Part shown: positions 7,301 through 20,452 of the stretch, piece after piece | Position numbering within the stretch: the first letter of the stretch is position 1 | Layout: each line of letters starts with the position of its first letter | Assembly (NCBI GenBank): GCA_045628985.1 | Contig: JAZQQH010000065.1 | Coordinates: forward strand, 181,514 to 245,513 | DNA from: Bacteroidales bacterium | GTDB taxonomy: Bacteria > Bacteroidota > Bacteroidia > Bacteroidales > UBA3663 | Reading direction: 5' to 3' | Length of the DNA: 64,000 nt | The notes under the pieces: model-generated | What the model was told of the DNA's origin: nothing | What the model saw: the letters and a program-made list of their open reading frames with translations, nothing else | Databases searched by the model: none | Program-made: the position numbers and the translations under genes

Positions 7301-9249
7301 AGTTCCTTTACAGCTTTCCATACCTGCTGAATTTCACTGATACTCAATTTTGTCTGATTGAGCAAAACAAAATGCTTGTCTAGGTCACCATCACTATAGA
7401 GGACAAAACATCGTGCTTCCAGATGAGGATCACGTCCTGCACGACCTGCTTCTTGAACGTAGTTTTCCAACGAATCGGAGATGTCATAATGCACTACCAA
7501 TCCCACATCACTCTTATCTACGCCCATGCCAAAGGCTGAGGTTGCTACAATAATGCGCACCTTATCGTTCATGAAAGCATCCTGATTTGCAATTTTTTCG
7601 TCTGCTTCCATCTGTCCATTGAAGGGCAAAGCTTTATAGCCATCACGAGTAAGTTTCTCAGCCAATTGTCTCGTGCGTTTTGTTCGAGACACGTAGACAA
7701 TAGTAGGACAATCACTTTCTGCTATTAGTGAGCGAAGTTTCGCGTACTTGTCTTCATCGGTATCTGCATGGATGACAGAGTATTGCAAATTTGTTCTTGA
7801 AGCAGTAGATGCAAATAGCTGAAGGTCAATGTCAAGTGACTGCTTGAAGTAATCACAAACATCCTGTATCACCTTCTGCTTTGCAGTAGCAGTAAAACAT
7901 GATACAGGAATAGCATCTTTGCAATGTTTCTTTTTCTGATACTCACTAATGAACTTACCGATATAAAGATAATCCACACGGAAGTCTTGGCCCCATGAGG
8001 AAAAACAATGTGCTTCGTCTATCACAAATCTTACTACATGACGAGCTAATAGAATTTTCTCTATAGTCTTAGAGCGAAGCATCTCGGGGGCAATATATAG
8101 CAGAGATGCATCACCGTCTTGCACACGCTGGATGGCTACAGAGCGGCTAATAGGGTCAAGCAAGCCATTGATTGTAACGGCATCCGTAATACCTCTTTCT
8201 GCGAGGTTATCCACCTGATCCTTCATTAACGATTGAAGAGGAGAGATAACCACAGTAAGACCATGTACAGAACGGCCCTCCATTAAAGCTGGCAACTGAA
8301 AAGTGAGAGATTTACCTCCTCCTGTTGGAAAGATAGCAAGCAAAGATTTTCCTTCTACAGCAGCTCTGGCAGCATTCTCTTGCAAAGGTTCTCCTTCATA
8401 AGTACGGAACTGATCGTAACCGAAGAATCTCTTCAGATTGTGAAGCACATCAAGATCTTTATTGCAATATGCACAACCTTCCTCACATCTAGTATATCGA
8501 AGAATTCTAACAATATTCTCCACATTGGGATAATTATGTAACACCCAAGATGGAGTAACAGAGCGATAATCAGTCGTATCAATCAGAGCCAACGCGTATG
8601 CAAGTTCGACCGGTTGTGAAGCAATCAAGTTTGCAATATCCACATGCTCGCAAATTTTACCTTTATACTCTGCACGAATCAATGCCGGAAGTTGAAGCTT
8701 GTCATCGACCTCTGCTCCTGCAAATAAAAGGAACCCATGAAACTCAGGTATGTCATAAAGCAAAGTTGCATAAATGATCTGCTTCTTATCTGAAAAAGCA
8801 CGCCACTGAGCTACCTCCTCCATTAGCAGATCTCTTGCTTTCTCACAATCGTTTACGGGATTGTTCATCTGCTCAGTAACCAGCTTATCATCTTTTAGCA
8901 AACGATGATAAGGGCGTTCTGGAAACAATAATGGCGAGACATATAACGTATCGACAAAAGCCCATTTAGGATTTTCTGCTCCAAAAAGATACTTCGCATC
9001 ATGATGAATGATATTATGGCCACACAGATAATCCACACCGTTAAGGAACCGTATTCCTGCATGTTTATCGGCAGAATGAAAAGTTGCGCCATCCCAACGC
9101 AATGCACCTATATCATGAATCTTTTTATCTTTCAAGCCGACTTCGCAATCCACTATAGCATAGTGGGAAGCATCTCGAGACACTTCCTGATGGGCTGCAA
9201 CAGAAACACTTCCGCTTACAGATTCAATGATTCTATTCCAGAAAGACAT
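4375..9249 (-). CDS. RecQ-family helicase fused to an N-terminal DEDD-type exonuclease-like domain and a C-terminal UvrD/REP (SF1) helicase
   Basis: IVDCEVG / CGHNIIHHD / DTL (exonuclease); PTGGGKS, DEAHC, WGQDFRVDY, QEAGRAGRD (RecQ); AGPGSGKT, DEAQD, VGDDDQNIYEFRG, STIHKSKGREFD, YVGITRAK (UvrD). Confidence 0.9.
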   Translation of the reverse strand: MSFWNRIIESVSGSVSVAAHQEVSRDASHYAIVDCEVGLKDKKIHDIGALRWDGATFHSADKHAGIRFLNGVDYLCGHNIIHHDAKYLFGAENPKWAFVDTLYVSPLLFPERPYHRLLKDDKLVTEQMNNPVNDCEKARDLLMEEVAQWRAFSDKKQIIYATLLYDIPEFHGFLLFAGAEVDDKLQLPALIRAEYKGKICEHVDIANLIASQPVELAYALALIDTTDYRSVTPSWVLHNYPNVENIVRILRYTRCEEGCAYCNKDLDVLHNLKRFFGYDQFRTYEGEPLQENAARAAVEGKSLLAIFPTGGGKSLTFQLPALMEGRSVHGLTVVISPLQSLMKDQVDNLAERGITDAVTINGLLDPISRSVAIQRVQDGDASLLYIAPEMLRSKTIEKILLARHVVRFVIDEAHCFSSWGQDFRVDYLYIGKFISEYQKKKHCKDAIPVSCFTATAKQKVIQDVCDYFKQSLDIDLQLFASTASRTNLQYSVIHADTDEDKYAKLRSLIAESDCPTIVYVSRTKRTRQLAEKLTRDGYKALPFNGQMEADEKIANQDAFMNDKVRIIVATSAFGMGVDKSDVGLVVHYDISDSLENYVQEAGRAGRDPHLEARCFVLYSDGDLDKHFVLLNQTKLSISEIQQVWKAVKELTRQRMRAYCSALEIARTAGWDDSVSDIETRVRTALAALEQAGYLERGNNVPHVYATGITVKNMDEARKRITESLLFDSDEVEKAIRIIKSLISQKHIAKAQDAEAESRVDYLADILGLNKCEVVSAVERMRQEGILADTKDISAYLNDVGESENKSKRLLERFTKLERFILNNIPDDVLRISYKQLNDNAQNEGILSATEKDIRTLLYFLTIKGYTRKNEDAAHNLEVKRQTDLGATIKRFEKRLEICRFSVEWLYKLAAKTTADESQKNGIQFSVVELLNELKSQGQNLFNVLQDIQLEDVEEALLYLSKIGALKLEGGFLVLYNAMDIRRVKDNRIRYKQEDYRMLNEFYKQKIQQVHIVGEYANLMVKDYDAALQYVQDYFQMDYKRFVSKYFKGNRVQEIERNVTPGKYEQLFGALSPKQMEIISNKDSRCIVVAAGPGSGKTRVLVHKLASLLMLEDVKHEQLLMLTFSRAAAIEFKQRLMGLIGNAAHFVEIKTFHSYCFDLLGRIGNLEDAKDVVSRAAKMISDGEVEPNRIAKTVLVIDEAQDMSTEEYALVHALMTANEEMRVIAVGDDDQNIYEFRGSNSKYMAQLLRDSEGRFVEMTENYRSARHIVSFANAFVMGLRGRMKGTPIVSMSQEEGVVSVIHHSSSSFMYEPLLRNLLQHRKRQGTMCVLTQTNEEAVILVALLRKHGLSSKLIQSMDGFRFWNIAEVRLFMKYIEKETRTPLIADEVWESAKSRTFSAYKDSGSLHYLQRCIQLFEETNKAKYLMDFKEYVFEASVEDFCDLTGADVVVSTIHKSKGREFDDVYLLVTDPNHITAEVLRRYYVGITRAKQRLFIHTNCPLFDNLPIDNKVADYNVYDMPTEIVLQLSHRDVNLGFFKPRKADILSLRAGEKLRYENHYLYETRSGKPVAQLSQMMQSVLSQWAEKQYCVVDSSVRFIVAWHPKDAPKEEKEHAVLLVDLSLKKS

Positions 9250-9269
9250 AAATAATAGTACAAACTACT

Positions 9270-11360
9270 TTATAAAAAGCCAAGTTTCTTAAGTCTTGAT
9301 CGAATGGAACCATTATTACGTTGCAGAATCGCACCAATCTCTGTAACAGACTTCCCTATTCGATGTAATCCGATGAGTGCTTGTTCTTCTTCTTCCGACC
9401 ATGGAGCATAAGCTTTCGCGTACATTTGCTTTTGTTTATCCATATAAGATAATACTTGTTTTGCACTTGACGGCTCATCAATAGCTGAAATTATGGCATC
9501 AGCAATTGGCAAATCTGAGCCTTGATTGCCCGGTGTTTCCTGAGAACGAGGAACTCCAATATGGTTGCAAATCAGATCAAGAAAACGTTTACCAAACTGA
9601 AGCTTTTTATGCTCACCAAGTCCATAGCAATTATCTAGCTGAAACATGCTAGTAGGCTTAACGGATGCCAACGACTGTAAAGATTTATCAGAGAGAACAA
9701 TGTAAGCAGGTTTGCCTATTTCTACAGAAATCGCTTTGCGGAGTTCCCAGAGTTTTTCAAACAGCGACTGATCTTCCGTCTGGGGTTCGAATGTAGATTC
9801 TAGCGAAACGATATTACGTTTACGTTTGGTGACACGAAGATCTTCTCTCACAATAACAGACAACTGAGCCTGCTTTTTCCCAAAAAGGACTTCCTCTCCA
9901 AGAGGTGTAACTTTCAAATGATTATCTTCGTCGTAAGCGATCTCGATGTAACCCATTTGCAACATCTGCAAAAGATACATATGCCAATCATTAGCTGGGA
10001 TATCAGAACCTGCACCAAAAGTCTTCAATTTATTAAACCCTTTACCAGAGATCAAAGGAGAATAACTTCCCTTTAGTATGTCAGTAGTTACCGAAAAACC
10101 GATCTGTTCATCTGTACGTTTGATAGCAGATAGCGCTTTCTGCACAATTATCGTTCCATCAAAATGTTGTGGAGGATTTTTACAAACATCACAATTACTG
10201 CAACTACATTCGGTTGCCTCACCAAAGTAGTTCAGCAGAATACGCCTACGGCATACCTGAGCCTCTGCATATTCCTGCATGCGTTTCAGCTTTTCAATAT
10301 TAATCTCACGTTGTCCACTCTCTTCTGCGAACTTCCGCAATGTTATCAAATCCTGTAAATTGTAAAAAAGAATTGTTTCTGTCGGCAATCCATCTCTACC
10401 ACCACGACCTATCTCCTGATAGAAACTCTCAATGCTCTTTGGAAGATTATTGTGTATGACAAAACGGATATTACTCTTGTCTATCCCCATTCCAAAAGCT
10501 ATCGTAGCACATATTACATTAATGCGGTCGTTGACGAAATCTTCTTGTACATGAGTTCGCTCTTCAGCAGACAACCCCGCATGGTAAACACCTACAGAAA
10601 TTCCATTCTGTTGGAGATCGGCGGCCATTTCTTCCGTTCCTTTCCTTGACAAACAGTAGATGATGCCACTTTCATTACTATGACGAGCAATAACCTCCAA
10701 TATGGTGCGCAAACGCTCCCTTTTTCTATACGCTTTACGAACATCAAGACTTAAATTCGGACGATCAAAACTTCCTACAAAAATCCTAGGATTTCTCAAC
10801 CTTAGCTGTTCAACAATATCCGCCTTTGTAACCTTATCCGCTGTTGCTGTCAATGCAAGAATAGGAATAGTAGGAAAACGGTTTTTCAACTGCCCTAATT
10901 GTGCATATTCTGGACGGAAATCGTGTCCCCATTGAGAAACACAATGCGCCTCGTCAATAGCGATCAAAGAAATCTTGACATAATGAAGCAACCATGGAAT
11001 CTCTGAAATTAGTCGTTCTGGCGAGATATAAAGAATTTTGATACTACCACATTGACAACGTTCTCGAATCGATTTATTTACAAGTTCATCATTACTGCTA
11101 TTTAATGCCTCTGCTTCAATGCCATTTGCTTGAAGAGAATCGACCTGATCTTTCATCAAAGATATGAGCGGAGACACAACAACAGTTGTTCCATCAAGCA
11201 TCAAAGCAGGAATCTGATAACAAATAGACTTTCCTCCACCAGTAGGCATCAAGACCAAAGCATCCTGACCAGAAACAACATAATTGATGATTTCTTTCTG
11301 GAGAGGACGGAATGAATCATATCCATAAACTGTTTTTAATAGTTGATATGCCTTATCCAT
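9270..11360 (-). CDS. recQ: ATP-dependent DNA helicase RecQ (RQC, HRDC, extra C-terminal HTH)
   Basis: MPTGGGKS, DEAHCVSQWGHDFRPEY, QEIGRGGRDG, CRRRILLNYFGE..CSNCDVC; HRDC-like LFEKLWELRK..PAYIVLSD. Confidence 0.93.
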   Translation of the reverse strand: MDKAYQLLKTVYGYDSFRPLQKEIINYVVSGQDALVLMPTGGGKSICYQIPALMLDGTTVVVSPLISLMKDQVDSLQANGIEAEALNSSNDELVNKSIRERCQCGSIKILYISPERLISEIPWLLHYVKISLIAIDEAHCVSQWGHDFRPEYAQLGQLKNRFPTIPILALTATADKVTKADIVEQLRLRNPRIFVGSFDRPNLSLDVRKAYRKRERLRTILEVIARHSNESGIIYCLSRKGTEEMAADLQQNGISVGVYHAGLSAEERTHVQEDFVNDRINVICATIAFGMGIDKSNIRFVIHNNLPKSIESFYQEIGRGGRDGLPTETILFYNLQDLITLRKFAEESGQREINIEKLKRMQEYAEAQVCRRRILLNYFGEATECSCSNCDVCKNPPQHFDGTIIVQKALSAIKRTDEQIGFSVTTDILKGSYSPLISGKGFNKLKTFGAGSDIPANDWHMYLLQMLQMGYIEIAYDEDNHLKVTPLGEEVLFGKKQAQLSVIVREDLRVTKRKRNIVSLESTFEPQTEDQSLFEKLWELRKAISVEIGKPAYIVLSDKSLQSLASVKPTSMFQLDNCYGLGEHKKLQFGKRFLDLICNHIGVPRSQETPGNQGSDLPIADAIISAIDEPSSAKQVLSYMDKQKQMYAKAYAPWSEEEEQALIGLHRIGKSVTEIGAILQRNNGSIRSRLKKLGFL

Positions 11361-11409
11361 TATAAGCTCCTTTTTGGAAATTTTTCAAAACACTCAGCAA
11401 AAATCAGAA

Positions 11410-11607
11410 TTACGTCTTCTCAACCCTCAACAGCTCATTAATATCCACTTCGAGGAGTTCTGCAATCTTAACAAACGTCTCCATTGGTGGCTGACAAGCA
11501 TTAGTGCACCATTTGCTTACGGTTGTTGGTGCGCATCCAATCTGCTCGGATAGCCATTTGTTGGTCTTCTTTTTGTCAACAAGAACTACTTTTATTCGGT
11601 TTTCCAT
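11410..11607 (-). CDS. XRE-family helix-turn-helix regulator
   Basis: NRIKVVLVDKKKTNKWLSEQIG...TVSKWCTN..QP, typical Bacteroidetes island HTH. Confidence 0.9.
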   Translation of the reverse strand: MENRIKVVLVDKKKTNKWLSEQIGCAPTTVSKWCTNACQPPMETFVKIAELLEVDINELLRVEKT

Positions 11608-11609
11608 TC

Positions 11610-12455
11610 TTATTCTGCTGAAGTTATTTGTTTGAGATCTGTTTGCACATTGTCAATCTCTGCATAGCCATTTACATGAAGAGCTTTGTCGAGAATATCA
11701 GTCTTGAATGCTACTCCTGTGCCATGACAAAGCATGGTGCCAATATGCAAAATTAACTTATAAAGCTGATGACCCTGGATGTGAAGGTATGCATTATCCT
11801 CATTAAGATGCTTGTTTACCATCACTTCTGAGATATGGAGGTCTTTCAACTTGTCACTAAACAAGTTTCTGACTTTTTCGACGTATGCATTTCCATTATT
11901 GACAAGGTCTTCTCTCTTTGGCTGAAGAGGCAAGCATAAATTGAACTTTGAAATGTTCCATTGCTGGTTCAACTCTGAGTTCTGGCTATAATGCACAAGG
12001 TAAAGAAGTGGCTTATACACAGCGGATGAAAGCTTCTGCAAAAAGATGCGAAAGTCAAATTCCGAATCATGAATCAATTCAGAAAAGCGAGACTGAAGAT
12101 GTTCTGCCTCACAGAAATGATTCTCCCAAGAATATGCGTATGTCTGAGCAATATTATTTTCGGAAGTTAATCCCTCCTCGCCTTTCAACTGGCGCAAATC
12201 GCTATCGATACAAACGAAAAACCGCTTTGTCAGATACGGCTTGTAACGCAGACATTGCTCACATCCACGAGCGTCATTGCCATTATCGTTTTTCGAATAG
12301 GTCAGAAATAGATAATTAGCTGGAGAGACGTTCTGAAGTTGATGCTTCCAGAAAAGAATATCCTCAGAATCCTCCAGATGCACGACAGCTTTAATGCTCC
12401 TGTCTCGTAATGGAAGATTACGATAGTATCGTGCTTGTTCTTCGATTCTATTCAT
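11610..12455 (-). CDS. DUF4435 TOPRIM-like nuclease (PARIS AriB-like)
   Basis: VHLEDSEDILFW (TOPRIM Glu), CIDSD (DxD), TYAYSWENH, QGH; directly downstream of an ABC ATPase. Confidence 0.8.
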   Translation of the reverse strand: MNRIEEQARYYRNLPLRDRSIKAVVHLEDSEDILFWKHQLQNVSPANYLFLTYSKNDNGNDARGCEQCLRYKPYLTKRFFVCIDSDLRQLKGEEGLTSENNIAQTYAYSWENHFCEAEHLQSRFSELIHDSEFDFRIFLQKLSSAVYKPLLYLVHYSQNSELNQQWNISKFNLCLPLQPKREDLVNNGNAYVEKVRNLFSDKLKDLHISEVMVNKHLNEDNAYLHIQGHQLYKLILHIGTMLCHGTGVAFKTDILDKALHVNGYAEIDNVQTDLKQITSAE

Positions 12456-12458
12456 ACG

Positions 12459-13202
12459 TTACTTGACTGGAGTGGTTACGTCTTCCATATAGATAATCTT
12501 ATCGCCCCATCCGTCACCAAAGATGCTTGGGGAATGTGTGGTGATGAAGTACTGAGCGTTAGGATTGAGCTTAACGAGAATATTGATCAACTCAAACTGC
12601 CAACTGATGTCAAGAGAGTTTTCTGGCTCATCAAGCAGTACAAAAGCATCCTGACCATCCAGAAGGAATACACGAAGCAGGATCAGAAGTATCTGCTTTT
12701 CTCCAGAAGAGAGGGCTTCAATGGATAAAATCTGATCACCAGATACGACATTGAACTTATTTCCTTCGATTTTGATATACTTTCCAGTACTTTTGAAAAG
12801 GTTGTTGATGGCCAAGCAGAAATCATCAATACGAGCTTTCATTTCTGCCTGCTTCTCAGCAGAAGCATCAATCATTGTCATTCGATAAGACATCATTGAC
12901 GGACCTGTCTTCATGTCGAACATATAATACTCAAGGTCTTGTGTCAATGCATTAGTTGTCTTACGTTTATCTCGCATGACGATGTCGTCAATAGAACGCA
13001 CATACACAACCTGACGCTTCTCCTCAAGGCCAAGATTGTTGTAAACTATCTTATAGATCTCATTTAAGAGAGTAGTTTTACCGCTACCATTTACACCAAC
13101 AATGATATTGACATCATCATTAGCGATAAAATGGACATCGTACTTATCCCAGAGTCGGGTCTTGATTTCTTTGATTTTGTTGTATGACATGATATCAGTC
13201 AT
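12459..13202 (-). CDS. ABC/AAA_21-type ATPase (PARIS AriA-like, short)
   Basis: GVNGSGKT Walker A, LSSGEKQ signature, LLDEPENSL Walker B, TTHSP. Confidence 0.85.
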   Translation of the reverse strand: MTDIMSYNKIKEIKTRLWDKYDVHFIANDDVNIIVGVNGSGKTTLLNEIYKIVYNNLGLEEKRQVVYVRSIDDIVMRDKRKTTNALTQDLEYYMFDMKTGPSMMSYRMTMIDASAEKQAEMKARIDDFCLAINNLFKSTGKYIKIEGNKFNVVSGDQILSIEALSSGEKQILLILLRVFLLDGQDAFVLLDEPENSLDISWQFELINILVKLNPNAQYFITTHSPSIFGDGWGDKIIYMEDVTTPVK

Positions 13203-13389
13203 TTGATTTCTTGCTGTTCAAAATAAAATGCACGCTATTATATTTACGCGTGCAAATATAATCATTTTTCGTCAATATCAAGAAGGGACTACTAAATTTC
13301 TGCAATAATTCCACACTTTAATAGCATTTCCTTCACTTTTTTGCAATATTATTGCCAAATTGGAGATGCAATGTAAAACACAAATTCAA

Positions 13390-13830
13390 TCGAGTTAACA
13401 CTTAACGCTTAACGCTTTTGCGAGATAGGCAATAGTGTTAAGCGTTAACGTTAACTTGATGCGACTGTAGATTGTTATAATGTCAAATCTATATTTCTTC
13501 GAGTTTACACTTTACGCTTTACGTTTTTACGTTTACATCTGCTATTGTCCGGGCATCCCCAAAAGTGTAAAGCGTAAAACGTAAAGTGTAAAGTGTATGT
13601 AATTCTGCATTTACTATTGACAAATAGGTACTGTCGTAAACTATATATTCATTTATATAAATCGCGCGCGATTATATATATAATTTTCGATTAAGATTAA
13701 TAGAATAAGTAATAGGAAGAAAAAAAGAAGTCCCTAAAGGAATGGTAGCCGCAGATGTGTATCATGTCAATGTGAGTTTCTATCGAGTTAACACTTTACA
13801 CTTTACGCTTTACGTTTTTACGTTGCACAT
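13390..13830. repeat. Heptamer repeat arrays (TTWACRC) in direct and inverted orientation
   Basis: Blocks beginning TCGAGTTWACACTTWAC at 13390, 13499 and 13783; inverted blocks near 13434-13456 and 13561-13597. Confidence 0.75.
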
Positions 13831-13916
13831 CTTACGGATTTACGAGCCGTGGGAAATGTCGATACAAGCAGTGGGAAATCTATTGTAGGGACAAGAAAAA
13901 AGCAGTATCTTTGCAC

Positions 13917-14080
13917 CGCCATTCAGAGGAGTCGAAGCTTGTACCGAATGCGGGCAATACTTATGATAACGGCCGAGCATAAGTATTGATTAACGTCTGG
14001 CATTAGTTAAGATCAACTACCCTACCTCAACCAAATAAGGTATGTTCGAGAGGACTGTGCTTGTAACGAACCTATTTTTT
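13917..14080 (+). ncRNA. Candidate structured ncRNA or orphan leader
   Basis: TATCTTTG box at 13906-13913; hairpins caatacttatg/cataagtattg, tacct/aggta, gttcg/cgaac followed by a T-run; no ORF in the track. Confidence 0.45.
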
Positions 14081-14277
14081 GATACTTATACATAATATTG
14101 TAGTGTTTTACGACTATCATAAAACACTGCAAAAATAGCGAAAATTATAAAATATAACAATTGCTCTCTTTTTTATGTGGCAACATATTACTTCTCATCG
14201 CTACTCTTTCTATTATCAAGCGAAAAATATCATTATTGAGCACACGCTCCAACTTTTTTATAAAAAAATACATTTTA

Positions 14278-14309
14278 CCTGTAACATTTCTATTTTCTGC
14301 ATACTATAA
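14278..14309 (+). promoter_or_regulatory. Putative ECF sigma promoter, copy 1
   Basis: CCTGTAACATTTC-N7-TGCATACTATAA; near-identical copy at 17720. Confidence 0.7.
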
Positions 14310-14356
14310 GAATGTAAGCAAACAACAATTCAAAAAAAATCATTAGCATCAACATC

Positions 14357-15148
14357 ATGAAGAAAATGAACGCAATGCTCGCTGTGGTCGAGCAAAGTGC
14401 ATCTCAATGCACAAAGAACCTGAAAGAACTTGCCACCAGTTTCAAAAAGAACTCTGGCGATTTCTTGGGTGTGAAGAAAACCTATAGGGCTCGTGAGGGA
14501 TATGCAGACGATCCGTCTAAACGAGGATACAAGCGTGTGGTATCAACTGTAGATGAGAAGATTGAGGCTCTACAAAAGGAGCTGACGGCACATCTCACCG
14601 ACCTGTTCTCCATAGAACGCACCAATAGTATTGGAGCTGCAAAGGTGCCACTCATAGTCGAAGGACGCAACTTCGGTGAAATGACTGCTATTGAACTTAT
14701 GCGTTTAAAGTCGTTCCTTATGCGAGAGGAGTTTGAACAGATATACAATGCCATTCCTGTCCGCTCTGATGCAGAGGATTGGACACGCACAACAGATTCC
14801 GATTACGAAGGACGAGAGATTTGGGAGACTCCTCTGATAAAAGGTGTAGCGAAGACCTCAGAGAACGAGGAGGTTATCCTTAAGGATCCAAATCTGAATC
14901 CTGAGAATCTTCCTGCCAACTATGTTGCAAAAACGACCGTCAAACGCAAGACGGTAGAAGTGGGCGACTATACTGCTCAGACATTCTCCGGTGAGTGGAA
15001 TCAGCGTCAGCGCTCTGAACTACTCCGCCGTCGTGCCACATTGCTCAAAGCTGTTATTGAGGCTCTCAAAATAGTAAATGATGTAGAGACGGTAGCATCT
15101 GAGATACAAGTAGAATCTCTTCTCAAATACATCCATTACGGAAAATAA
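14357..15148 (+). CDS. Conserved uncharacterised, probably helical/coiled-coil protein (candidate RNA-binding partner of the downstream ncRNA)
   Basis: 263-aa ORF. The pattern (MNAMLAV, FLGVKKTY, TNS..A.V..IVEG, ELMRL, IPV, VGDYT..FSG, ELLRR..LLKAV) resembles a family I recall from Actinobacteria, cyanobacteria and phages (possibly DUF7873; not verified). Confidence 0.8.
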   Translation: MKKMNAMLAVVEQSASQCTKNLKELATSFKKNSGDFLGVKKTYRAREGYADDPSKRGYKRVVSTVDEKIEALQKELTAHLTDLFSIERTNSIGAAKVPLIVEGRNFGEMTAIELMRLKSFLMREEFEQIYNAIPVRSDAEDWTRTTDSDYEGREIWETPLIKGVAKTSENEEVILKDPNLNPENLPANYVAKTTVKRKTVEVGDYTAQTFSGEWNQRQRSELLRRRATLLKAVIEALKIVNDVETVASEIQVESLLKYIHYGK

Positions 15149-15150
15149 TC

Positions 15151-15460
15151 GGGCAACGACCCAACAGGATAATTGACTAAAGCTTCACTTTTACGCATTA
15201 GCATCATGCCGCACCAATATAGTCATTGCCCTTACAGCGCGCTGTCTATATGGCACAAAGCATCAGCATTGAGTCAAAAGCATTGGCTTTAGCCTTACCG
15301 GTCGAAGACTGCTGGAATACGTGATTCATGAGACCCTGAAGATTGCAAGTTCGAATCTTGCATCCGCCTCAATCTTTATACTACATGGCGGATTGGTGCA
15401 ATGGTCAACACATCAGGAACATAGCCTTAGCATCATAGCAGCAGATACATTCGACAAAAC
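15151..15460 (+). ncRNA. Structured ncRNA containing a circularly permuted tRNA-like (YrlA/Y RNA-like) module
   Basis: T arm gcaag-TTCGAAT-cttgc (15345-15361) precedes acceptor stem atccgcc/ggcggat (15362-68/15387-93) and D arm (15396-15411). Closed by cctga/tcagg. Outer stems gtcgaa/ttcgac and ctgctg/cagcag. 5' domain gggcaacgac/gtcattgccc. Confidence 0.75.
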
Positions 15461-15497
15461 TCCATCCCTGTTCATGAAGGAAAAGAGCGAACAGGGA

Positions 15498-15568
15498 GGG
15501 CGGGTAGCTTAGTGGCAAAGCACACGACTGCAGATCATGACACATAGGTTCGATTCCTATCCCGCCCA
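15498..15568 (+). tRNA. tRNA with GCA anticodon (Cys-like), atypical
   Basis: Cloverleaf: gggcggg/cccgccc, gctt/aagc, cacga/tcatg (one mismatch) with loop ctGCAga, atagg-TTCGATT-cctat; discriminator A, no encoded CCA. Confidence 0.8.
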
Positions 15569-15645
15569 CGAATAATAATTCCAAAGCGAAGACAATGGAC
15601 CTTTAGAACAAAATCTTAGAAAGAATAGAATTAACGTTTTCCAAT

Positions 15646-16074
15646 ATGAAGAACAATGACAAAGTGCAACAAGCACTCCAATGGCTAGATGATGAGGGTT
15701 GGAGTGAACTGATTGACCCCAGATGGACACTTGAGGTTTATCATGAACTCCAAACGTCCAAACTTAATCTCAAAGATGAAGATATTCGTGAGACACTTGA
15801 TATTGTGATTTACGATAAACCCGACTACAATCCTGCAAATAATGAACGGCTCGTTCGCGGAATGACCGAGGACAGTCCAAAATACAAAGACTATATCTGC
15901 AAGATGCTGCAATGTAAGAAGGATGCAGAAACTGAAGATCCCAAACATTCTGGTTTCTTTGACCTGAGCAAACCTCACGAGAAGGCGGATGAGATTCTTT
16001 GCAATCTGCTCATGGATTTAGGGTTCAAAGATATTGTGGACGTTTATAAATCCTTTGACAAATGGTATGCTTAA
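15646..16074 (+). CDS. Hypothetical protein, phage-type C-terminal motif
   Basis: 142 aa; HEKADEILCNLLMDLGF...KWYA end resembles small phage hypotheticals (from recall). Confidence 0.7.
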   Translation: MKNNDKVQQALQWLDDEGWSELIDPRWTLEVYHELQTSKLNLKDEDIRETLDIVIYDKPDYNPANNERLVRGMTEDSPKYKDYICKMLQCKKDAETEDPKHSGFFDLSKPHEKADEILCNLLMDLGFKDIVDVYKSFDKWYA

Positions 16075-16098
16075 GCCCCCACCTTTAATTTCACAAAA

Positions 16099-16461
16099 AT
16101 GATAAAATATGATTCAATTGAGAACATCCTTCAGACATTGAAAGAAAAGTTCTCCCGTCAAGAAAAAGAAATTGAACGTCTCAGACTTGAGAATGCGAAG
16201 CTCAAGAACGGAATTTGGCAGGAAGAAGAAATGGCTTGGCTCAAAGCTGAATATGACAGAATGAAAGAAGAATATCATAGAGGGTTCTCTATCTCAAAAG
16301 AGGAGAAAGCAATAATAAATGAGTTCATAAATCAGCATAAAGGCTACTATGGTGCCATAGGCGGAGGTTTCTCATACCAGTTCATTCCGACTTCCATTGG
16401 CATTATTGGTACCATCATTGCCTCAAATGGTGATAAGTTAGTATTTAGAGAACTAGGATAA
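16099..16461 (+). CDS. Hypothetical protein (coiled coil + GAIGG motif), phage-type
   Basis: 120 aa; GAIGGGFSYQFIPTSIG motif. Confidence 0.7.
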   Translation: MIKYDSIENILQTLKEKFSRQEKEIERLRLENAKLKNGIWQEEEMAWLKAEYDRMKEEYHRGFSISKEEKAIINEFINQHKGYYGAIGGGFSYQFIPTSIGIIGTIIASNGDKLVFRELG

Positions 16462-16468
16462 TGAGAAC

Positions 16469-16702
16469 ATGCCCATGAGACTTCAATACAAAATAATCTT
16501 ATGCTTATTGGCATTACCAATAAACATCCTGATTTTGAAAATTGTTTGGAATTGGATTATACCATCCATTACCGGATGGAAAGAAATCAATTATCTGCAA
16601 GCGTGTGGCTTGTTTGTTCTATACTGGAGTATTCATGGAATGGTGCGTTTTACTTTCAACACACGGCAAAAGAGACAAAGTGTTTCGTTTCGCCAAATGT
16701 AA
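16469..16702 (+). CDS. Small membrane protein
   Basis: Two hydrophobic segments flanking WNWIIPSITGWKEINYLQACGL. Confidence 0.6.
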   Translation: MPMRLQYKIILCLLALPINILILKIVWNWIIPSITGWKEINYLQACGLFVLYWSIHGMVRFTFNTRQKRQSVSFRQM

Positions 16703-16715
16703 AATATGGCAATAC

Positions 16716-17636
16716 TTATAATGACAATTGATCATAAGCAGGACAAAAGTTAAGACGTTTATAGAAAGTCCACAAGACTGAAGGTACTGATTTCTGATAC
16801 TCTATGACTGTGGTGTCATGAACCATTCCTCCCCTCTTCTCCTTTCGTGAGAGTCGAAGTTCTGCCACCGCCTCAGCATTGGGGAGCTGTAATAATGTCT
16901 CTTCGTAATAGGCAATCAGGCAATTGTATAAATCGGAGAAATGATCATTGATGTCAGATGCTATCGAAAGATATTCAGATCCATATGATAATACTTGATT
17001 CCCCTGTTGCAACAGACTCAAATTATGCCTCATTTGAGCCTTGATTCGATACACGATGACTCTATATGCTTCATAAGATATTCCCATTGCCTGGGTAATG
17101 TCTTTCTCTGGTAGAGCTTTGCTTTTGTCCAAAATAGTCAGAAGCCAGCGCAACAAGATAAATCTTTCTCGTGGTTGTAGCACCTGAAGCATGTAGGCCA
17201 ACACATGAGAAAAAGTCTCAATCATACGTTCGGTTTGCAACAAAGGAAGACCATCACTACAAGCATTAATCTCGTCAGCATACTCAACATAAAACTCCCT
17301 TAATTTGGTTTCAGAAGCAACTCTATTAGCCAGATAATTCCGGAAGGTCGAACGGACCCATGTCACAAAAACATCTCGATGCTGCACGCCTAACAAAATT
17401 TTGTAAGGCTGGCTATTGTCTCCATCTTTTCCCTCACGCAAATACAGGAAGAAATCTTCCACTACATCTTCATAATCATCAAGAATCTCTTCTCTAAAGG
17501 CATCAAACTTCTCTCGCAACTGCGGCTTCAGCCTTTCGTGCAACAACCAGTACATTGCTTCGTCTGCTTGCTCTCGATGAGCAAGGATGAAGTCGAGAAA
17601 TTCGGATAAAGGTATATACTGGAAGTTCGTAGCCAT
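16716..17636 (-). CDS. ECF-type sigma-70 factor with C-terminal extension
   Basis: Region 2-like EDVVEDFFLYL...FVTWVRSTFRNYL; region 4-like LQPRERFILL...EKDITQAMGISYEAYRVIVYRIK; about 100 extra C-terminal residues. Confidence 0.75.
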   Translation of the reverse strand: MATNFQYIPLSEFLDFILAHREQADEAMYWLLHERLKPQLREKFDAFREEILDDYEDVVEDFFLYLREGKDGDNSQPYKILLGVQHRDVFVTWVRSTFRNYLANRVASETKLREFYVEYADEINACSDGLPLLQTERMIETFSHVLAYMLQVLQPRERFILLRWLLTILDKSKALPEKDITQAMGISYEAYRVIVYRIKAQMRHNLSLLQQGNQVLSYGSEYLSIASDINDHFSDLYNCLIAYYEETLLQLPNAEAVAELRLSRKEKRGGMVHDTTVIEYQKSVPSVLWTFYKRLNFCPAYDQLSL

Positions 17637-17719
17637 GAGGAGTATCTTTGTTTATTCTGCCGCGAATTTACGTATTATTTTGGAGAAATATCGTAAATAA
17701 TCAAAAAATATTGATTTGG

Positions 17720-17751
17720 CCTATAACATTTCGATTAATTGCATACTATAA
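17720..17751 (+). promoter_or_regulatory. Putative ECF sigma promoter, copy 2
   Basis: CCTATAACATTTC-N7-TGCATACTATAA, same spacing as the copy at 14278. Confidence 0.7.
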
Positions 17752-17842
17752 AGATGAAAATAGCCAAAAGAAAATATCATTGGCTATCTTTTCCAAACAA
17801 TAATAATATAAAGAAATTGAAAAAGAAAGTAGCATCATTGTT

Positions 17843-18178
17843 ATGAGTAATAAGACATGTAAGATATGCGGTTACGATGACGTAATTGAGGGTAAAGATA
17901 TTTGTAAATTCTGCGAAAATGCAAAAGCATCCATTAGCGATGTGGAAATGCGTAAGAGTGTTTCTGTTGATTTGCATAAGTTCTCCTCTCTATTCTCAAA
18001 AGAAGGAGATTACGTAGAGGTGACAGAATGGACGAACGGAGAGGGTTTTGACATCTGCTTGTGTACCTCTGAAACGAACCATAAAAGTAAAACGCTGTCA
18101 TTAACCAGAGATGAGCTGGAAGCTATTTATAATGCACTGGTTCTTCTGGGGATGGACTTCATAACGTACAAAAAATAA
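17843..18178 (+). CDS. Hypothetical protein with N-terminal CxxC..CxxC
   Basis: CKIC...CKFC; DYVEVTEWTNGEGFDI motif. Confidence 0.7.
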   Translation: MSNKTCKICGYDDVIEGKDICKFCENAKASISDVEMRKSVSVDLHKFSSLFSKEGDYVEVTEWTNGEGFDICLCTSETNHKSKTLSLTRDELEAIYNALVLLGMDFITYKK

Positions 18179-18184
18179 AACACG

Positions 18185-18556
18185 ATGAAGAAAGAATATT
18201 TCATAGGCGACAGACGCAAATATGGTATTACGCTGATGGAAACCATCCGGCTTGAGGAAAGATTACCTGGAAGGGAAATCTACAAAGTGAAATGGACAAC
18301 GCTCACAAACTATGATGGGTTGAATATTCAGGCCTTTCCAATGGTTAGGACAGATGGGGAGTTTTACGACTTTACTCCTATTACTAAAGCCGAATACAAC
18401 GAAATTCTGACCGTCTTAAGAAGTGTCAGTGAGGAACTAAAACCATTACTTGAAGTCAAAAAGCAGATTGATAATAAGATATGTGAGACACATAGAAAGG
18501 TATGGAAGAAATTCCCCCAAATAAGTATTCAATCTCAAAACACTATTATTCAATGA
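18185..18556 (+). CDS. Hypothetical protein
   Basis: 123-aa ORF 6 bp after the previous stop codon. Confidence 0.6.
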   Translation: MKKEYFIGDRRKYGITLMETIRLEERLPGREIYKVKWTTLTNYDGLNIQAFPMVRTDGEFYDFTPITKAEYNEILTVLRSVSEELKPLLEVKKQIDNKICETHRKVWKKFPQISIQSQNTIIQ

Positions 18557-18561
18557 TATCT

Positions 18562-19497
18562 TTATTTGTTCTTTCTCACAAAGAAACCTGCAGCAATACT
18601 TCCTGAGAAGTTGTGCCAAGCAGAGAAGATGGCACCGGGAACTGCAGCCATCGGATAGATGGCGAAATGAGTGGCGGCAAGAGAGGTCGCAAGGCCAGAG
18701 TTCTGCATACCTACCTCTATGGAGATAGCCGTACTTTTAGCTTTGCTCATTCCTGACAATCTGGCCAATGTGAATCCTAAGACGAGGCCTGACAGATTGT
18801 GCAGAATAACAGCTACAGCAACGATCAAGCTACAGCCAAGGATGTTGGAAGCGTTGTGCGATACCACGATACCGATAATGGCAGCGACAGAGAGTGTGGA
18901 GATCATCGGGAGCAATGGGGTAACCTTCTCTGTCTGAGCTTTGAACCAGTGGCTTACGACAAATCCAGCAATGATCGGCAGAATAACCACCTGCACAATA
19001 CTCAGGAACATGGCATACGGATTTACCTCGATATTCTCTCCTGCCAGAAGAAGCACAAGGAGCGGTGTGATCAAAGGCGCTAACATCGTGGATACCGCAG
19101 TCATTCCTACCGACAAGGCAATGTCTCCTTTGGCCAGATAACACATCACATTTGAGGCGGTTCCTCCAGGGCAACATCCCACCAGAATCACACCCAATGC
19201 AAGCTCTTGAGGCAAAGACAAGAGCTTACAAAGCAGCCATGCTACCAGCGGCATGATGATGAACTGAGATAGCTCTCCGATGAGAATATCTTTCGGACGT
19301 CTGAGTACAGGGACGAAATCCGCAGGCTTCAGTGTCAGGCCCATGCCAAACATAACGATACCCAAGAGTGGCGTCACCGTAGAGGTGTTCATCCAGAGGA
19401 AACTCCCTGGGATGAAAAGAGCGATGGCCGTCACTATCACAACAAGAATCGTGATATGCGAAGAGATAAGTTCGGAAAGATGATATAGCTGTTTCAC
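18562..19497 (-). CDS. Bile acid:sodium symporter (BASS) family transporter
   Basis: MFGMGLTL, GCCPGGTASN, IEVGMQNSGLA, FSAWHN. Confidence 0.92.
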   Translation of the reverse strand: MKQLYHLSELISSHITILVVIVTAIALFIPGSFLWMNTSTVTPLLGIVMFGMGLTLKPADFVPVLRRPKDILIGELSQFIIMPLVAWLLCKLLSLPQELALGVILVGCCPGGTASNVMCYLAKGDIALSVGMTAVSTMLAPLITPLLVLLLAGENIEVNPYAMFLSIVQVVILPIIAGFVVSHWFKAQTEKVTPLLPMISTLSVAAIIGIVVSHNASNILGCSLIVAVAVILHNLSGLVLGFTLARLSGMSKAKSTAISIEVGMQNSGLATSLAATHFAIYPMAAVPGAIFSAWHNFSGSIAAGFFVRKNK

Positions 19498-19654
19498 CGT
19501 AGTTCAGGATTGTGATCTTTAGGAAAAAATTCCTATTATTCTTGGATTATTATCGGTGCAAAGATAAAGAAAAAGCGGATATGTTGCATATAGAGTCAGA
19601 AATATTTGGTCAATTCATCAAAAAATATCATCTTTGCGTCCGATAAAATAACTA

Positions 19655-20452
19655 ATGATACAACAGATGTTCAAAAATATAAAAGCCGTATTCTTCGATA
19701 TTGACGGCACTTTGGTTTCCTTCAAGACGCATGAGGTACCACAATCGGCCAAAGAGGCGATTCATGAGGTGCGCCAACAAGGCGTGAAGGTCTTCATTGC
19801 CACGGGTCGCCCGATGCCCTTCATCAACAATCTGAAGGATGTGGAGTATGATGGTATCATGTCGGTGACGGGAGCTTGCTGCATGACGGCCGACGGAGAG
19901 ATCATCCAGAGCCAACCCGTCGAGAAAAGCGATATAGAAAGACTGATAAAGGAAACTTCACAACGTCCTATGCCAGTACTCTTTGCCAGCAAGGACAAGG
20001 CCATAGGCTGCATGATCGATGCAGATCGAAAAAGTGTGGAGGAGGTCATGACGCTAGTCAGCTTGGAGGTTCCCGAAGAGCAACCTATGGATAAGGCGCT
20101 GGACATGGAGGTACTACAGGTCATTGCCTTCTTCACCACAGAAGAAGAACCGAGAATGATGGACGAAGTGCTGAAGGGATGTGATGCCGCACGCTGGCAT
20201 CCTGCTTTTGCCGACTGTATCCGCAAAGGGACGAATAAAGCTACCGGCATTGACGCTATCTGTCAGTATTATGGCATTGATCTGCAGGACACTATGGCCG
20301 TGGGCGACGGAGGCAATGACATCACGATGCTCCGTCATGCTGGCGTAGGTGTTGCCATGGGAAATGCTTCGGACGAAGTAAAGGCTCATGCAGATTACAT
20401 CACCGACGACGTAGATAATGACGGTGTGGCGAAATTACTCCAGAAACTTTGA
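19655..20452 (+). CDS. Cof-type HAD-IIB hydrolase
   Basis: FFDIDGTL, IATGR, GDGGNDITML, GVAMGNA. Confidence 0.93.
   Translation: MIQQMFKNIKAVFFDIDGTLVSFKTHEVPQSAKEAIHEVRQQGVKVFIATGRPMPFINNLKDVEYDGIMSVTGACCMTADGEIIQSQPVEKSDIERLIKETSQRPMPVLFASKDKAIGCMIDADRKSVEEVMTLVSLEVPEEQPMDKALDMEVLQVIAFFTTEEEPRMMDEVLKGCDAARWHPAFADCIRKGTNKATGIDAICQYYGIDLQDTMAVGDGGNDITMLRHAGVGVAMGNASDEVKAHADYITDDVDNDGVAKLLQKL

Follow-up and report, generated by a model that had tools for sequence, protein, structure and literature searches.

The window analysed here, the whole 64,000-nt stretch of contig JAZQQH010000065.1 from a Bacteroidales bacterium, carries on its plus strand a gene for a 263-aa protein of the DUF7873 family (14357..15148), followed by a spacer of 349 nt (15149-15497) and a tRNA gene. 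Comparison with related loci indicates that the spacer encodes a structured non-coding RNA of a family outside Rfam 15. The stretch is best described as a new Y RNA-like family, in which a tRNA mimic of the YrlA type is combined with a domain of hexamer arrays, a new constant protein partner, and an attached tRNA of variable anticodon. We give an even chance to the reading that this RNA is a Y RNA-like tether whose hexamer arrays dock putative DUF7873 dimers, and that a copy of the hexamer in the leader of the gene damps its translation in lineages where such a copy is present. A preliminary description, made from the letters of the window, had taken the hexamers for repeated binding sites of the 263-aa protein, with the RNA acting as a scaffold or sponge for an oligomer and excess protein repressing its own translation. 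All features of the window given below lie on the plus strand unless stated otherwise.

At gathering score, the tRNA was the only Rfam 15 match in the window. At E <= 10, the spacer was empty save for a chance-level minus-strand mir-2483 row over 15149-15190 (E 8.5; 17 bits, where the gathering score is 75), and the RNAs of eight other loci had no Rfam match. No paper describing the RNA in its title or abstract was found in the literature on DUF7873, YrlA, Ro60 and phage Y RNA, or tRNA-like and phage tRNA-array elements; the supplementary phage RNA lists of the YrlA paper, which could hold relatives, were not covered by this search.

Permuted tRNA mimic in the 3′ domain of the RNA

A circularly permuted tRNA mimic takes up the 3′ two-thirds of the RNA; its elements follow one another as variable region, T-arm, closed 7-bp acceptor and D-arm. 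A bipartite closing stem replaces the anticodon stem, the chain entering and leaving there, and the acceptor is closed by a loop. In the window, the closing stem consists of GTCGAA (15301-15306) and CTGCTG (15309-15314) on the 5′ side and CAGCAG (15439-15444) and TTCGAC (15450-15455) on the 3′ side, as read from the minimum free energy (MFE) fold and the alignment. The T-arm (15345..15361) has a 5-bp stem and a TTCGAAT loop, with 100% of the cells paired and compensatory changes in four of the five pairs. Directly after it, ATCCGCC (15362-15368) pairs with GGCGGAT (15387-15393) to form the acceptor-like stem (97.7% paired, 5/7 pairs compensatory), whose loop is 18 nt in the window and 16-245 nt in relatives; the D-arm (15396..15411) is paired in 94.7% of the cells, with all three pairs compensatory. 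In an alignment of 19 sequences, the lower closing stem was paired in 72.6% of the cells and all six of its pairs were changed on both sides. The covariation score on this alignment was 0.424, a value that none of 500 shuffles reached (0.176 +/- 0.013) and that dropped to 0.189 or less when the partners were slid. The upper closing stem and the terminal hairpin were 41% and 51% paired, respectively, on the MAFFT alignment, which we read as misalignment and from which no claim is drawn.

The tRNA-like module was also searched for as a pattern, defined as a T-arm running straight into a 7-nt strand and then, after 16-245 nt, the complement of that strand and a D-arm. The pattern was found in 106 of 128 downstream regions, three of these hits looking spurious, and the sequences of the stems vary from locus to locus. 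The RNA of the window ends with a hairpin with a GGA-containing loop (15466..15496, MFE fold), and relatives have a hairpin at the same place that aligns poorly. The loop reads AAGGAA in the window and GAGGAU in many phage relatives and, by eye only, resembles a CsrA-type or anti-Shine-Dalgarno-like site.

YrlA is a tRNA-mimicking subfamily of bacterial and phage Y RNAs and, in the portions of the source available (PMC4201824), has the order variable region, T-arm, acceptor-like stem-loop and D-arm inside a stem formed by the 5′ and 3′ ends. Pattern search and covariation give the same order for the window RNA family, which shares with YrlA the closing stem, the variable region, the T-arm, the closed acceptor-like stem-loop, the D-arm, tRNA-like T- and D-loops, and occurrence in phages. 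The same portions report a motif GNCGAAN0-1G near the 5′ end of YrlA, presumed to be the Ro60 contact (PMC4201824); GUCGAAG at 15301-15307, in the 5′ strand of the closing stem, fits this motif and is kept in the window clade (as GCCGAAG in locus L003). The window-family RNA is unlike YrlA in being about three times longer and in having an extra 5′ domain, with the helices P1 and P2 and the arrays, which is absent from the Y RNA descriptions in the available portions of the literature. It differs further in its acceptor, which is always 7 bp, in DUF7873 as its constant partner, in a Ro60-like protein that falls in Pfam DUF2828/DUF7788 and not in TROVE, and in the tRNA of variable anticodon that follows it.

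Helices and hexamer arrays

The 5′ third of the RNA consists of a covarying helix, P1, that encloses a hairpin, P2, together with hexamer arrays. Four arrays were distinguished: H1 after the 5′ strand of P1, H2 before the 3′ strand of P1, H3 after the latter, and H4 between the D-arm and the closing stem. P1 pairs TTGACT (15173..15178) with AGTCAA (15272..15277) in 92% of the cells, and two to three of its six pairs show changes on both sides. P2 (15214..15253, MFE fold) is enlarged in the window clade; the short P2 of phage relatives shows compensatory changes, alignment pair 89/138 being altered on both sides in seven sequences. H1 (15181..15205) has units at 15181 and 15200 and is degenerate in the window clade, with four clean units in phage relatives. 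H2 (15259..15270) reads AGCATC AGCATT, and among 29 sequences the A and G of its second unit and the U5 of both units are invariant. H3 (15279..15296) reads AGCATT GGCTTT AGCCTT, and H4 (15423..15434), AGCCTT AGCATC, is found after the D-arm in most representatives.

The hexamers listed in the preliminary description, AGCTTC (15181), AGCATC (15200, 15259 and 15429), AGCATT (15265 and 15279), GGCTTT (15285) and AGCCTT (15291 and 15423), are exact in their coordinates. Their placement mostly between predicted stems broadly holds: units flank P1 and P2 and sit between the D-arm and the closing stem, while the first unit and part of H3 (15279-15296) can pair with each other in a helix termed P3.

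As RGCHTY, the hexamer occurs nine times in the spacer, against 1.75 +/- 1.24 times in 2000 dinucleotide-preserving shuffles. Nine or more copies are held by just 0.46% of the 349-nt stretches across the window, and the maximum of 10 overlaps the spacer. In an unbiased 5-mer test with the window as background, AGCAT came out as the most over-represented word in the spacer (5 copies against 0.57 expected). The motif was defined after the sequence had been viewed, which would leave room for the hexamers to be a chance or compositional artefact; yet none of the 2000 shuffles reached nine, and RNAs accompanied by proteins of only 40-57% identity show the same motif in the same register and at the same array positions. 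A chance origin is ruled out by this family comparison, and we regard its probability as negligible.

Among nine aligned units of 29 non-redundant RNAs, the first position is A in 91% and the second G in 86%, the third is C in 68% or A in 18%, the fourth may be any base, the fifth is U in 96%, and the sixth is U in 67% or C in 22%. RGCHTY is therefore a good approximation of a real conserved motif, A-G-(C/A)-N-U-(U/C), with a strict six-base period. One clade has AGAUUU in both H2 units in place of AGCAUN. Counted as AGC[ACT]TN in the first 450 nt 3′ of the gene, 2-14 units were present in loci whose tRNA-like module had been called with a T-loop of the TTCRA type (4-14 except in the distant locus L015, with 2). 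Of the 22 loci lacking a module call, 21 had 0-4 units and L114 had 8.

H3 was also considered as the coding part of a tmRNA-like RNA, in which in-frame GCN-UUR repeats would encode an Ala-Leu tag beside the tRNA-like domain. One frame of H3 does read Ala-Leu-Ala-Leu-Ala-Leu, with a stop one or two codons later in several phage relatives (by eye), and phages of the group carry tmRNA genes (L137, Rfam 54.8 bits); in the window, however, this frame meets no stop for 14 codons, a loop closes the acceptor, and no CCA is encoded. Alanine charging needs a G3:U70 pair. Such a pair was absent from the acceptor stems examined and neither ARAGORN nor Rfam called a tmRNA here, and on these two grounds the tmRNA reading, which we consider very improbable, was rejected. 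The tmRNA genes seen near the cassette in phages are at L137:2048-2448 (the Rfam match just given) and, as permuted-tmRNA calls by ARAGORN, at L022:4305-4758 and L025:4721-5272.

DUF7873 and its linkage to the RNA

The product of the gene at 14357..15148 matches Pfam PF25283 with an E-value of 1.8e-33 (116.7 bits against a cut-off of 27). Its AlphaFold2 model, with a mean predicted local distance difference test score (pLDDT) of 89.2, is a helical bundle with an inserted beta-sheet. The protein had no match in PHROGs or PADLOC and none at >=0.9 in the ESM Atlas, and no paper naming DUF7873 was found. Structure prediction of an oligomer had been proposed in the preliminary description, and two copies of the protein were modelled together. 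A homodimer was predicted, with an interaction prediction score from aligned errors (ipSAE) of 0.66 against 0.00 for the best control, at least 35% of contacts in agreement between runs, and a partner pLDDT of at least 72. Among proteins solved as same-chain pairs, 20 of 30 attained an ipSAE of 0.66, as did one of 23 solved as single chains. The modelling supports DUF7873 as a symmetric homodimer.

Relatives of the protein were taken from 9 loci of species-representative genomes, from the best 80 of 165 metagenome contigs, and from 43 viral-contig loci. The viral-contig records are 35-554 kb long, most of them >90 kb (mostly ~95-190 kb), and in the annotated phage collection the protein is confined to 15 Prevotella Lak megaphage records. 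Linkage was searched with R1, a covariance model of the 5′ domain of the RNA. R1 hit downstream of the DUF7873 gene, on the same strand and once each, in 115 of 134 loci (98/100 and 17/34). The misses are two loci with <130 nt of downstream DNA and 17 Lak-like megaphage loci. L015, whose protein is 28% identical, retains the gene, the RNA (E 5.8e-4), the tRNA-like module and the tRNA. Within the order, the RNA was found in none of 150 other genomes in a covariance-model search with stricter filters, and DUF7873 in 2 of 401.

Directly upstream of DUF7873, 68 of 138 loci have a gene for a protein of ~580-600 aa with Pfam DUF2828 and DUF7788. Folded with 43 homologues, this protein reached a pLDDT of 89.5 and a predicted TM-score (pTM) of 0.89. 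For this protein, the top 13 Foldseek rows in the PDB were Ro60/TROVE proteins without exception (best E 8.1e-9; alignments of 505-631 columns), Rsr of Deinococcus and the Thermus phage phiLo Ro60 among them, and the DxSxS motif of MIDAS, the adhesion site that depends on a metal ion, is invariant in 43 sequences. A profile of the protein had Ro60 as its best match among PDB sequences (E 0.008), and a single-sequence search of PDB sequences gave no match. By its modelled fold and the MIDAS motif, the product of the phage gene upstream of DUF7873 fits the Ro60 build of a TROVE ring plus a vWA domain and is a structural homologue of Ro60, and half of the family has the gene order Ro60-like, DUF7873, Y-like RNA, tRNA. 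No Ro60-like gene was found in the window genome and many phage clades have none adjacent; the constant partner of the RNA is thus DUF7873, and not Ro60.

A copy of the motif in the leader of the DUF7873 gene

The 11-mer CATTAGCATCA occurs at both 14341-14351 in the leader and 15196-15206 in the RNA, as first described, and the ATG is at 14357. The hexamer unit within the leader copy, AGCATC (14345..14350), lies 7 nt before the ATG, and all eight window-clade leaders retain an AGCHUY unit at 7-10 nt from the ATG despite surrounding indels. With the motif taken into account, the exact 11-mer is less remarkable than it looked; one of 29 RNAs from other lineages also has an 11-mer in common with the window leader. 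Over the family, a unit of the family motif starting at -25 to -6 was present in 14 of 46 dereplicated DUF7873 leaders, five of the 14 being from the window's clade. Shuffled leaders gave 2.4 +/- 1.5, none of 1000 shuffles reaching 14, and as a control, the other ORFs of >=100 aa in the same loci carried the motif in 13 of 151 cases.

Upstream of the leader unit, two putative promoter-like boxes, CTGTAACATTTC (14279-14290) and TACTAT (14302-14307), are present in eight of eight aligned window-clade leaders despite nearby indels. TGTAAC and TACTAT, ~16-17 nt apart in the window (14279-14307), look like -35 and -10 boxes rather than like the usual Bacteroidetes promoter.

Docking of DUF7873 and the competing explanations

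The hexamers might serve the structure of the RNA itself, units with an AGCU core pairing within the RNA (P3, or a hairpin in H3) or between copies, the latter giving a multimer of the ROOL/GOLLD kind; we think this unlikely. ROOL and GOLLD, ornate RNAs of phages and prophages, are encoded beside tRNA genes in phages, and the window RNA resembles them as a large structured RNA adjacent to a tRNA. It differs from them in having no Rfam match, and ROOL and GOLLD have neither a dedicated protein nor a tRNA mimic. P3, a pseudoknot relative to P1, joins AAAGC (15179-15183) of the first unit to GCUUU of the middle unit of H3 and can form in 85% of the cells; RNAalifold instead draws a small hairpin within H3, and RNA-only homo-oligomers of ROOL and GOLLD are reported in the available portions of PMC12286853. 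Since two units can pair and RNAalifold puts a hairpin in H3, the motif may be partly structural. The conserved positions are, however, A1, G2 and U5, position 3 is A in 18%, and position 4, where U is required for AGCU self-pairing, is U in only 53% of the cells. P3 is almost without compensatory change (two single cells) and breaks in the clade with AGUUUU/AGUCUU units, and the units of H2 and H4 (AGCAU, AGAUU) are not self-complementary. Because of the low share of U at position 4 and the scant covariation of P3, the conservation of the units resembles single-stranded base recognition more than helices, and we infer that the units offer bases for recognition in single-stranded form.

Alternatively, the arrays could dock another factor, with DUF7873 acting elsewhere in the pathway; candidates would be the Ro60-like protein, PNPase or a similar exoribonuclease of the host, and some other RNA-binding protein of the host. 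This explanation, which we hold to be doubtful, draws on known Y RNAs: in the portions of the sources available, these tether Ro60 to PNPase through a non-stem module in Deinococcus and in Thermus phage phiLo (PMC4201824, PMC12135203), and a phage Ro60 with Y-like RNAs is reported to engage host PNPase (PMC12135203). The Ro60-like gene adjoining DUF7873 in 68 of the 138 loci would suit it, as would the lack of a recognisable RNA-binding fold in DUF7873. Yet the constant companion of the RNA is DUF7873; the window clade and many phage clades have no adjacent Ro60-like gene, and the window genome has none. The motif also recurs specifically at the start of DUF7873, in 14/46 leaders against 13/151 other ORFs. 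For jumbo phages, an RNA-repair platform made up of a TROVE protein and a tRNA-like partner has been suggested in print (PMC7824862), and the available portions of PMC12135203 and PMC7824862 make no mention of DUF7873, hexamer arrays or an attached tRNA.

Several observations count against DUF7873 dimers docking on a Y RNA-like tether. On the protein side, the best Foldseek PDB rows for DUF7873 were Cas7 subunits (E 0.02, TM 0.1), too weak to be used, the best VIA-align Z of 6.4 lies within the noise of helical proteins, BFVD gave nothing at E <= 0.001, and the Pfam search found no RNA-binding domain; the pI is 7.7. On the RNA side, besides the possible P3 pairing and the RNAalifold hairpin described above, the MFE of the window RNA is not unusual (z = -0.96), and the GNCGAA motif is restricted to the window's clade, the stem covarying in the other (phage) clades. 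In the window genome, which is 88.7% complete, there is no PF05731 (TROVE), no PF11443 (DUF2828) and no relative of the phage Ro60-like protein, so adjacency to Ro60, by which a Y RNA might be recognised, is lacking in the window and found in the 68 loci. Linkage is looser in the Lak-like megaphages: five records could be searched whole, and the 100%- and 76%-complete ones each carry one RNA copy far from the gene. The RNA in Lak-like record L139 precedes tRNA-Lys; fragments that are 29% and 45% complete had no RNA copy in the covariance-model search, from which, as a whole-record search, loci L135 and L138 were left out. As to the leaders, 32 of the 46 are without the motif, the AGC-only form is found in 8 of 47, five of them from the window's clade, and in 9 of 13 cases a leader matches its own RNA no better than foreign RNAs. 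Co-evolution of the leader with its own RNA is thus not supported in general. Homologous loci bear out the motif in the RNAs and in a minority of the leaders, and translational feedback by DUF7873 is plausible in some lineages. Autorepression cannot be a rule for the whole family, because most leaders are without the motif and because in the 68 loci the gene directly abuts the upstream Ro60-like gene.

The trp leader bound by TRAP has (G/U)AG repeats and CsrB/RsmZ have GGA repeats; in both cases RNAs with a short repeated motif wrap or titrate a protein. The window RNA is like them in having many copies of a two- to three-base core at a fixed short spacing and one copy at the translation start of a gene that would be regulated. 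It is unlike them in its A-G..U core, in its strict six-base period, and in its arrays of two to four units split by helices. No TRAP or CsrA homology was found in DUF7873, and the likeness may concern the mode of action, not membership. Taken together, a conserved, periodic and apparently single-stranded motif, a leader copy in a third of lineages and a predicted dimer that is the steady companion of the RNA are what a protein-docking array would be expected to look like, which partly supports the preliminary interpretation. A role as scaffold fits the known behaviour of Y RNAs; for a role as sponge, no specific support emerged.

Mobility of the cassette

The leader, the DUF7873 gene, the RNA and the tRNA span 14333..15569, and among homologous loci the flanks of this cassette vary. 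In blastn of window positions 9001-20000 against 12 homologous loci, homology begins at 14316-14343 and ends at 15566-15577 in the loci holding that side. Beyond these borders the flanks are mostly unrelated, with further downstream stretches shared by L002, L010 and L013, and contigs from sequencing runs diverge at 14343/14353 and 15566/15569. In the window's genus, the cassette is patchy, being present in 4 of 37 genomes including the window's own. Because of this patchiness and of the sharp ends of homology between unrelated flanks, the cassette behaves as a mobile one. Large gut phages commonly carry it, at the head of tRNA arrays; in the window it lies within a bacterial defence island by PARIS.

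The attached tRNA and PARIS

The module tRNA of the window (15498..15569) has the anticodon GCA (Cys) and was called by ARAGORN and, with 66.7 bits, by the Rfam tRNA model. A same-strand tRNA follows the gene at 275-545 nt in most loci with enough downstream DNA and usually heads a tRNA array. RNAs of the window clade share 84-98% identity and their tRNA bodies are near-constant, and the anticodons are GCA (the window, L002, L010), AGT (L009), CCA (L008, L004), TGT (L005, L007) and GAT (L003). Phage clades likewise have near-identical tRNAs one anticodon base apart (TTT/TTC/GTT, ATT/ACT), CTT and others also being seen. Some loops of module tRNAs have no U33, an A at position 34, or eight bases. 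The body of the module tRNA was found only in cassette-bearing genomes (3/41), and in the 88.7%-complete assembly it is the sole tRNA-Cys called by ARAGORN.

tRNAs with a CTA anticodon, of amber-suppressor type, are first or second after the RNA in L019, L021, L022, L025, L049, L087 and L088. Standing at or beside the start of the array, they are a hint of stop-codon recoding in those phages.

A complete PARIS pair lies on the minus strand 1.1 kb upstream of the cassette and divergent from it (11610-13202), with the ABC ATPase AriA at 12459-13202 and the DUF4435/Toprim nuclease AriB at 11610-12455. The assignment is given by PADLOC (AriA 2e-108, AriB 7.7e-116) and by Pfam AAA_21 and DUF4435. 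Beyond PARIS, the defence island includes a RecQ/DpdF-like helicase (9270-11360), a 1624-aa DEAD+UvrD helicase (4375-9249) and a Schlafen/AlbA_2 protein (1017-2645). According to the available portions of 10.1101/2025.02.04.636281, targets of AriB are Lys-UUU, Thr-UGU and Asn-GUU, and all three are frequent among the module-tRNA anticodons. The module tRNA resembles phage tRNAs that bypass anticodon nucleases, such as T5 tRNAs against PARIS, in being a tRNA of mobile elements with a fast-changing anticodon loop, and its anticodons often equal AriB targets. It is unlike them in that one conserved body takes many anticodons and is always fused to a Y-like RNA.

Neighbours related to tRNA or RNA repair were seen in other loci, namely an RNA ligase with a PHA02142 OB-fold (L008:589-1977), the peptidyl-tRNA hydrolase PTH2 (L009:1012-1497) and an RlaP nucleotidyltransferase (L089:668-1921). 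The AriB-target anticodons, the nearby AriA/AriB pair and these neighbours provide circumstantial evidence that suggests tRNA repair or counter-defence as the role of the cassette. A broader proposal is that DUF7873, the Y-like RNA and the variable-anticodon tRNA form a self-contained ribonucleoprotein used by phages and mobile elements against tRNA-cutting immunity such as PARIS. DUF7873 dimers would occupy the AG..U arrays in steps of six bases, and the tRNA mimic would attract the nuclease or the repair enzymes or act as a decoy for them. Diversifying selection would act on the anticodon loop, so that the tRNA could stand in for the attacked host tRNA or serve as bait, and the window bacterium would have captured the cassette beside its own PARIS. 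We put this proposal forward as speculative, with a small chance of being right as a whole.

Transcripts and further neighbours

Two RNA libraries contained contigs over the gene and the RNA, and one contig of 261 nt spans 15313-15566, from the tRNA-like domain to the 3′ end of the tRNA. These contigs are a weak sign of transcription, for which DNA carry-over is possible and from which ends, strand and levels are unreadable; uncovered stretches in sequencing runs X1 and X2 are uninformative.

Upstream of the leader, 13915-14085 is a possible small RNA, with a Bacteroidetes-type promoter TATCTTTG (13906-13913) in front, a hairpin and U-run at its end, and another GUCGAAG at 13931-13937. The stretch 13890-14095 was rejected as a second conserved RNA: among 60 genomes, just one other extends the similarity past the promoter, and the fold does not stand out. 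In human-gut phage loci, a RAGATH-34 RNA (RF03103, 80-86 bits) lies ~2 kb upstream of DUF7873 (L023:366-470, L026:285-386).

Proposed mode of action and implications

In the docking reading, the RNA would act as a modular tether, as Y RNAs do. Its tRNA-like domain and closing stem would engage tRNA-handling enzymes, and Ro60 where it is present, and the hexamer arrays would be a docking platform for DUF7873 dimers with one contact per six bases. Surplus DUF7873 would damp its own translation through the leader copy in lineages that have one. The biological role would most likely be tRNA repair, tRNA quality control, or protection from tRNA-cutting defences.

Known Y RNAs are partners of Ro60; bacterial ones are modified by TruB/DusA, and in some species RNase P cuts them and CCA is added. 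The new family keeps their tRNA-mimic core with a different constant protein and an added repeat domain. The RNA family is widespread in large gut phages, Lak megaphages included. DUF7873 would gain a first testable function, as the protein of a putative RNA-protein pair with a simple periodic code, and the tRNA is unusual in itself, its body being conserved while its anticodon loop changes fast and is often non-canonical. The family may connect Ro/Y-type ribonucleoproteins with the tRNA arrays of phages and with the arms race over tRNA-cutting defences.

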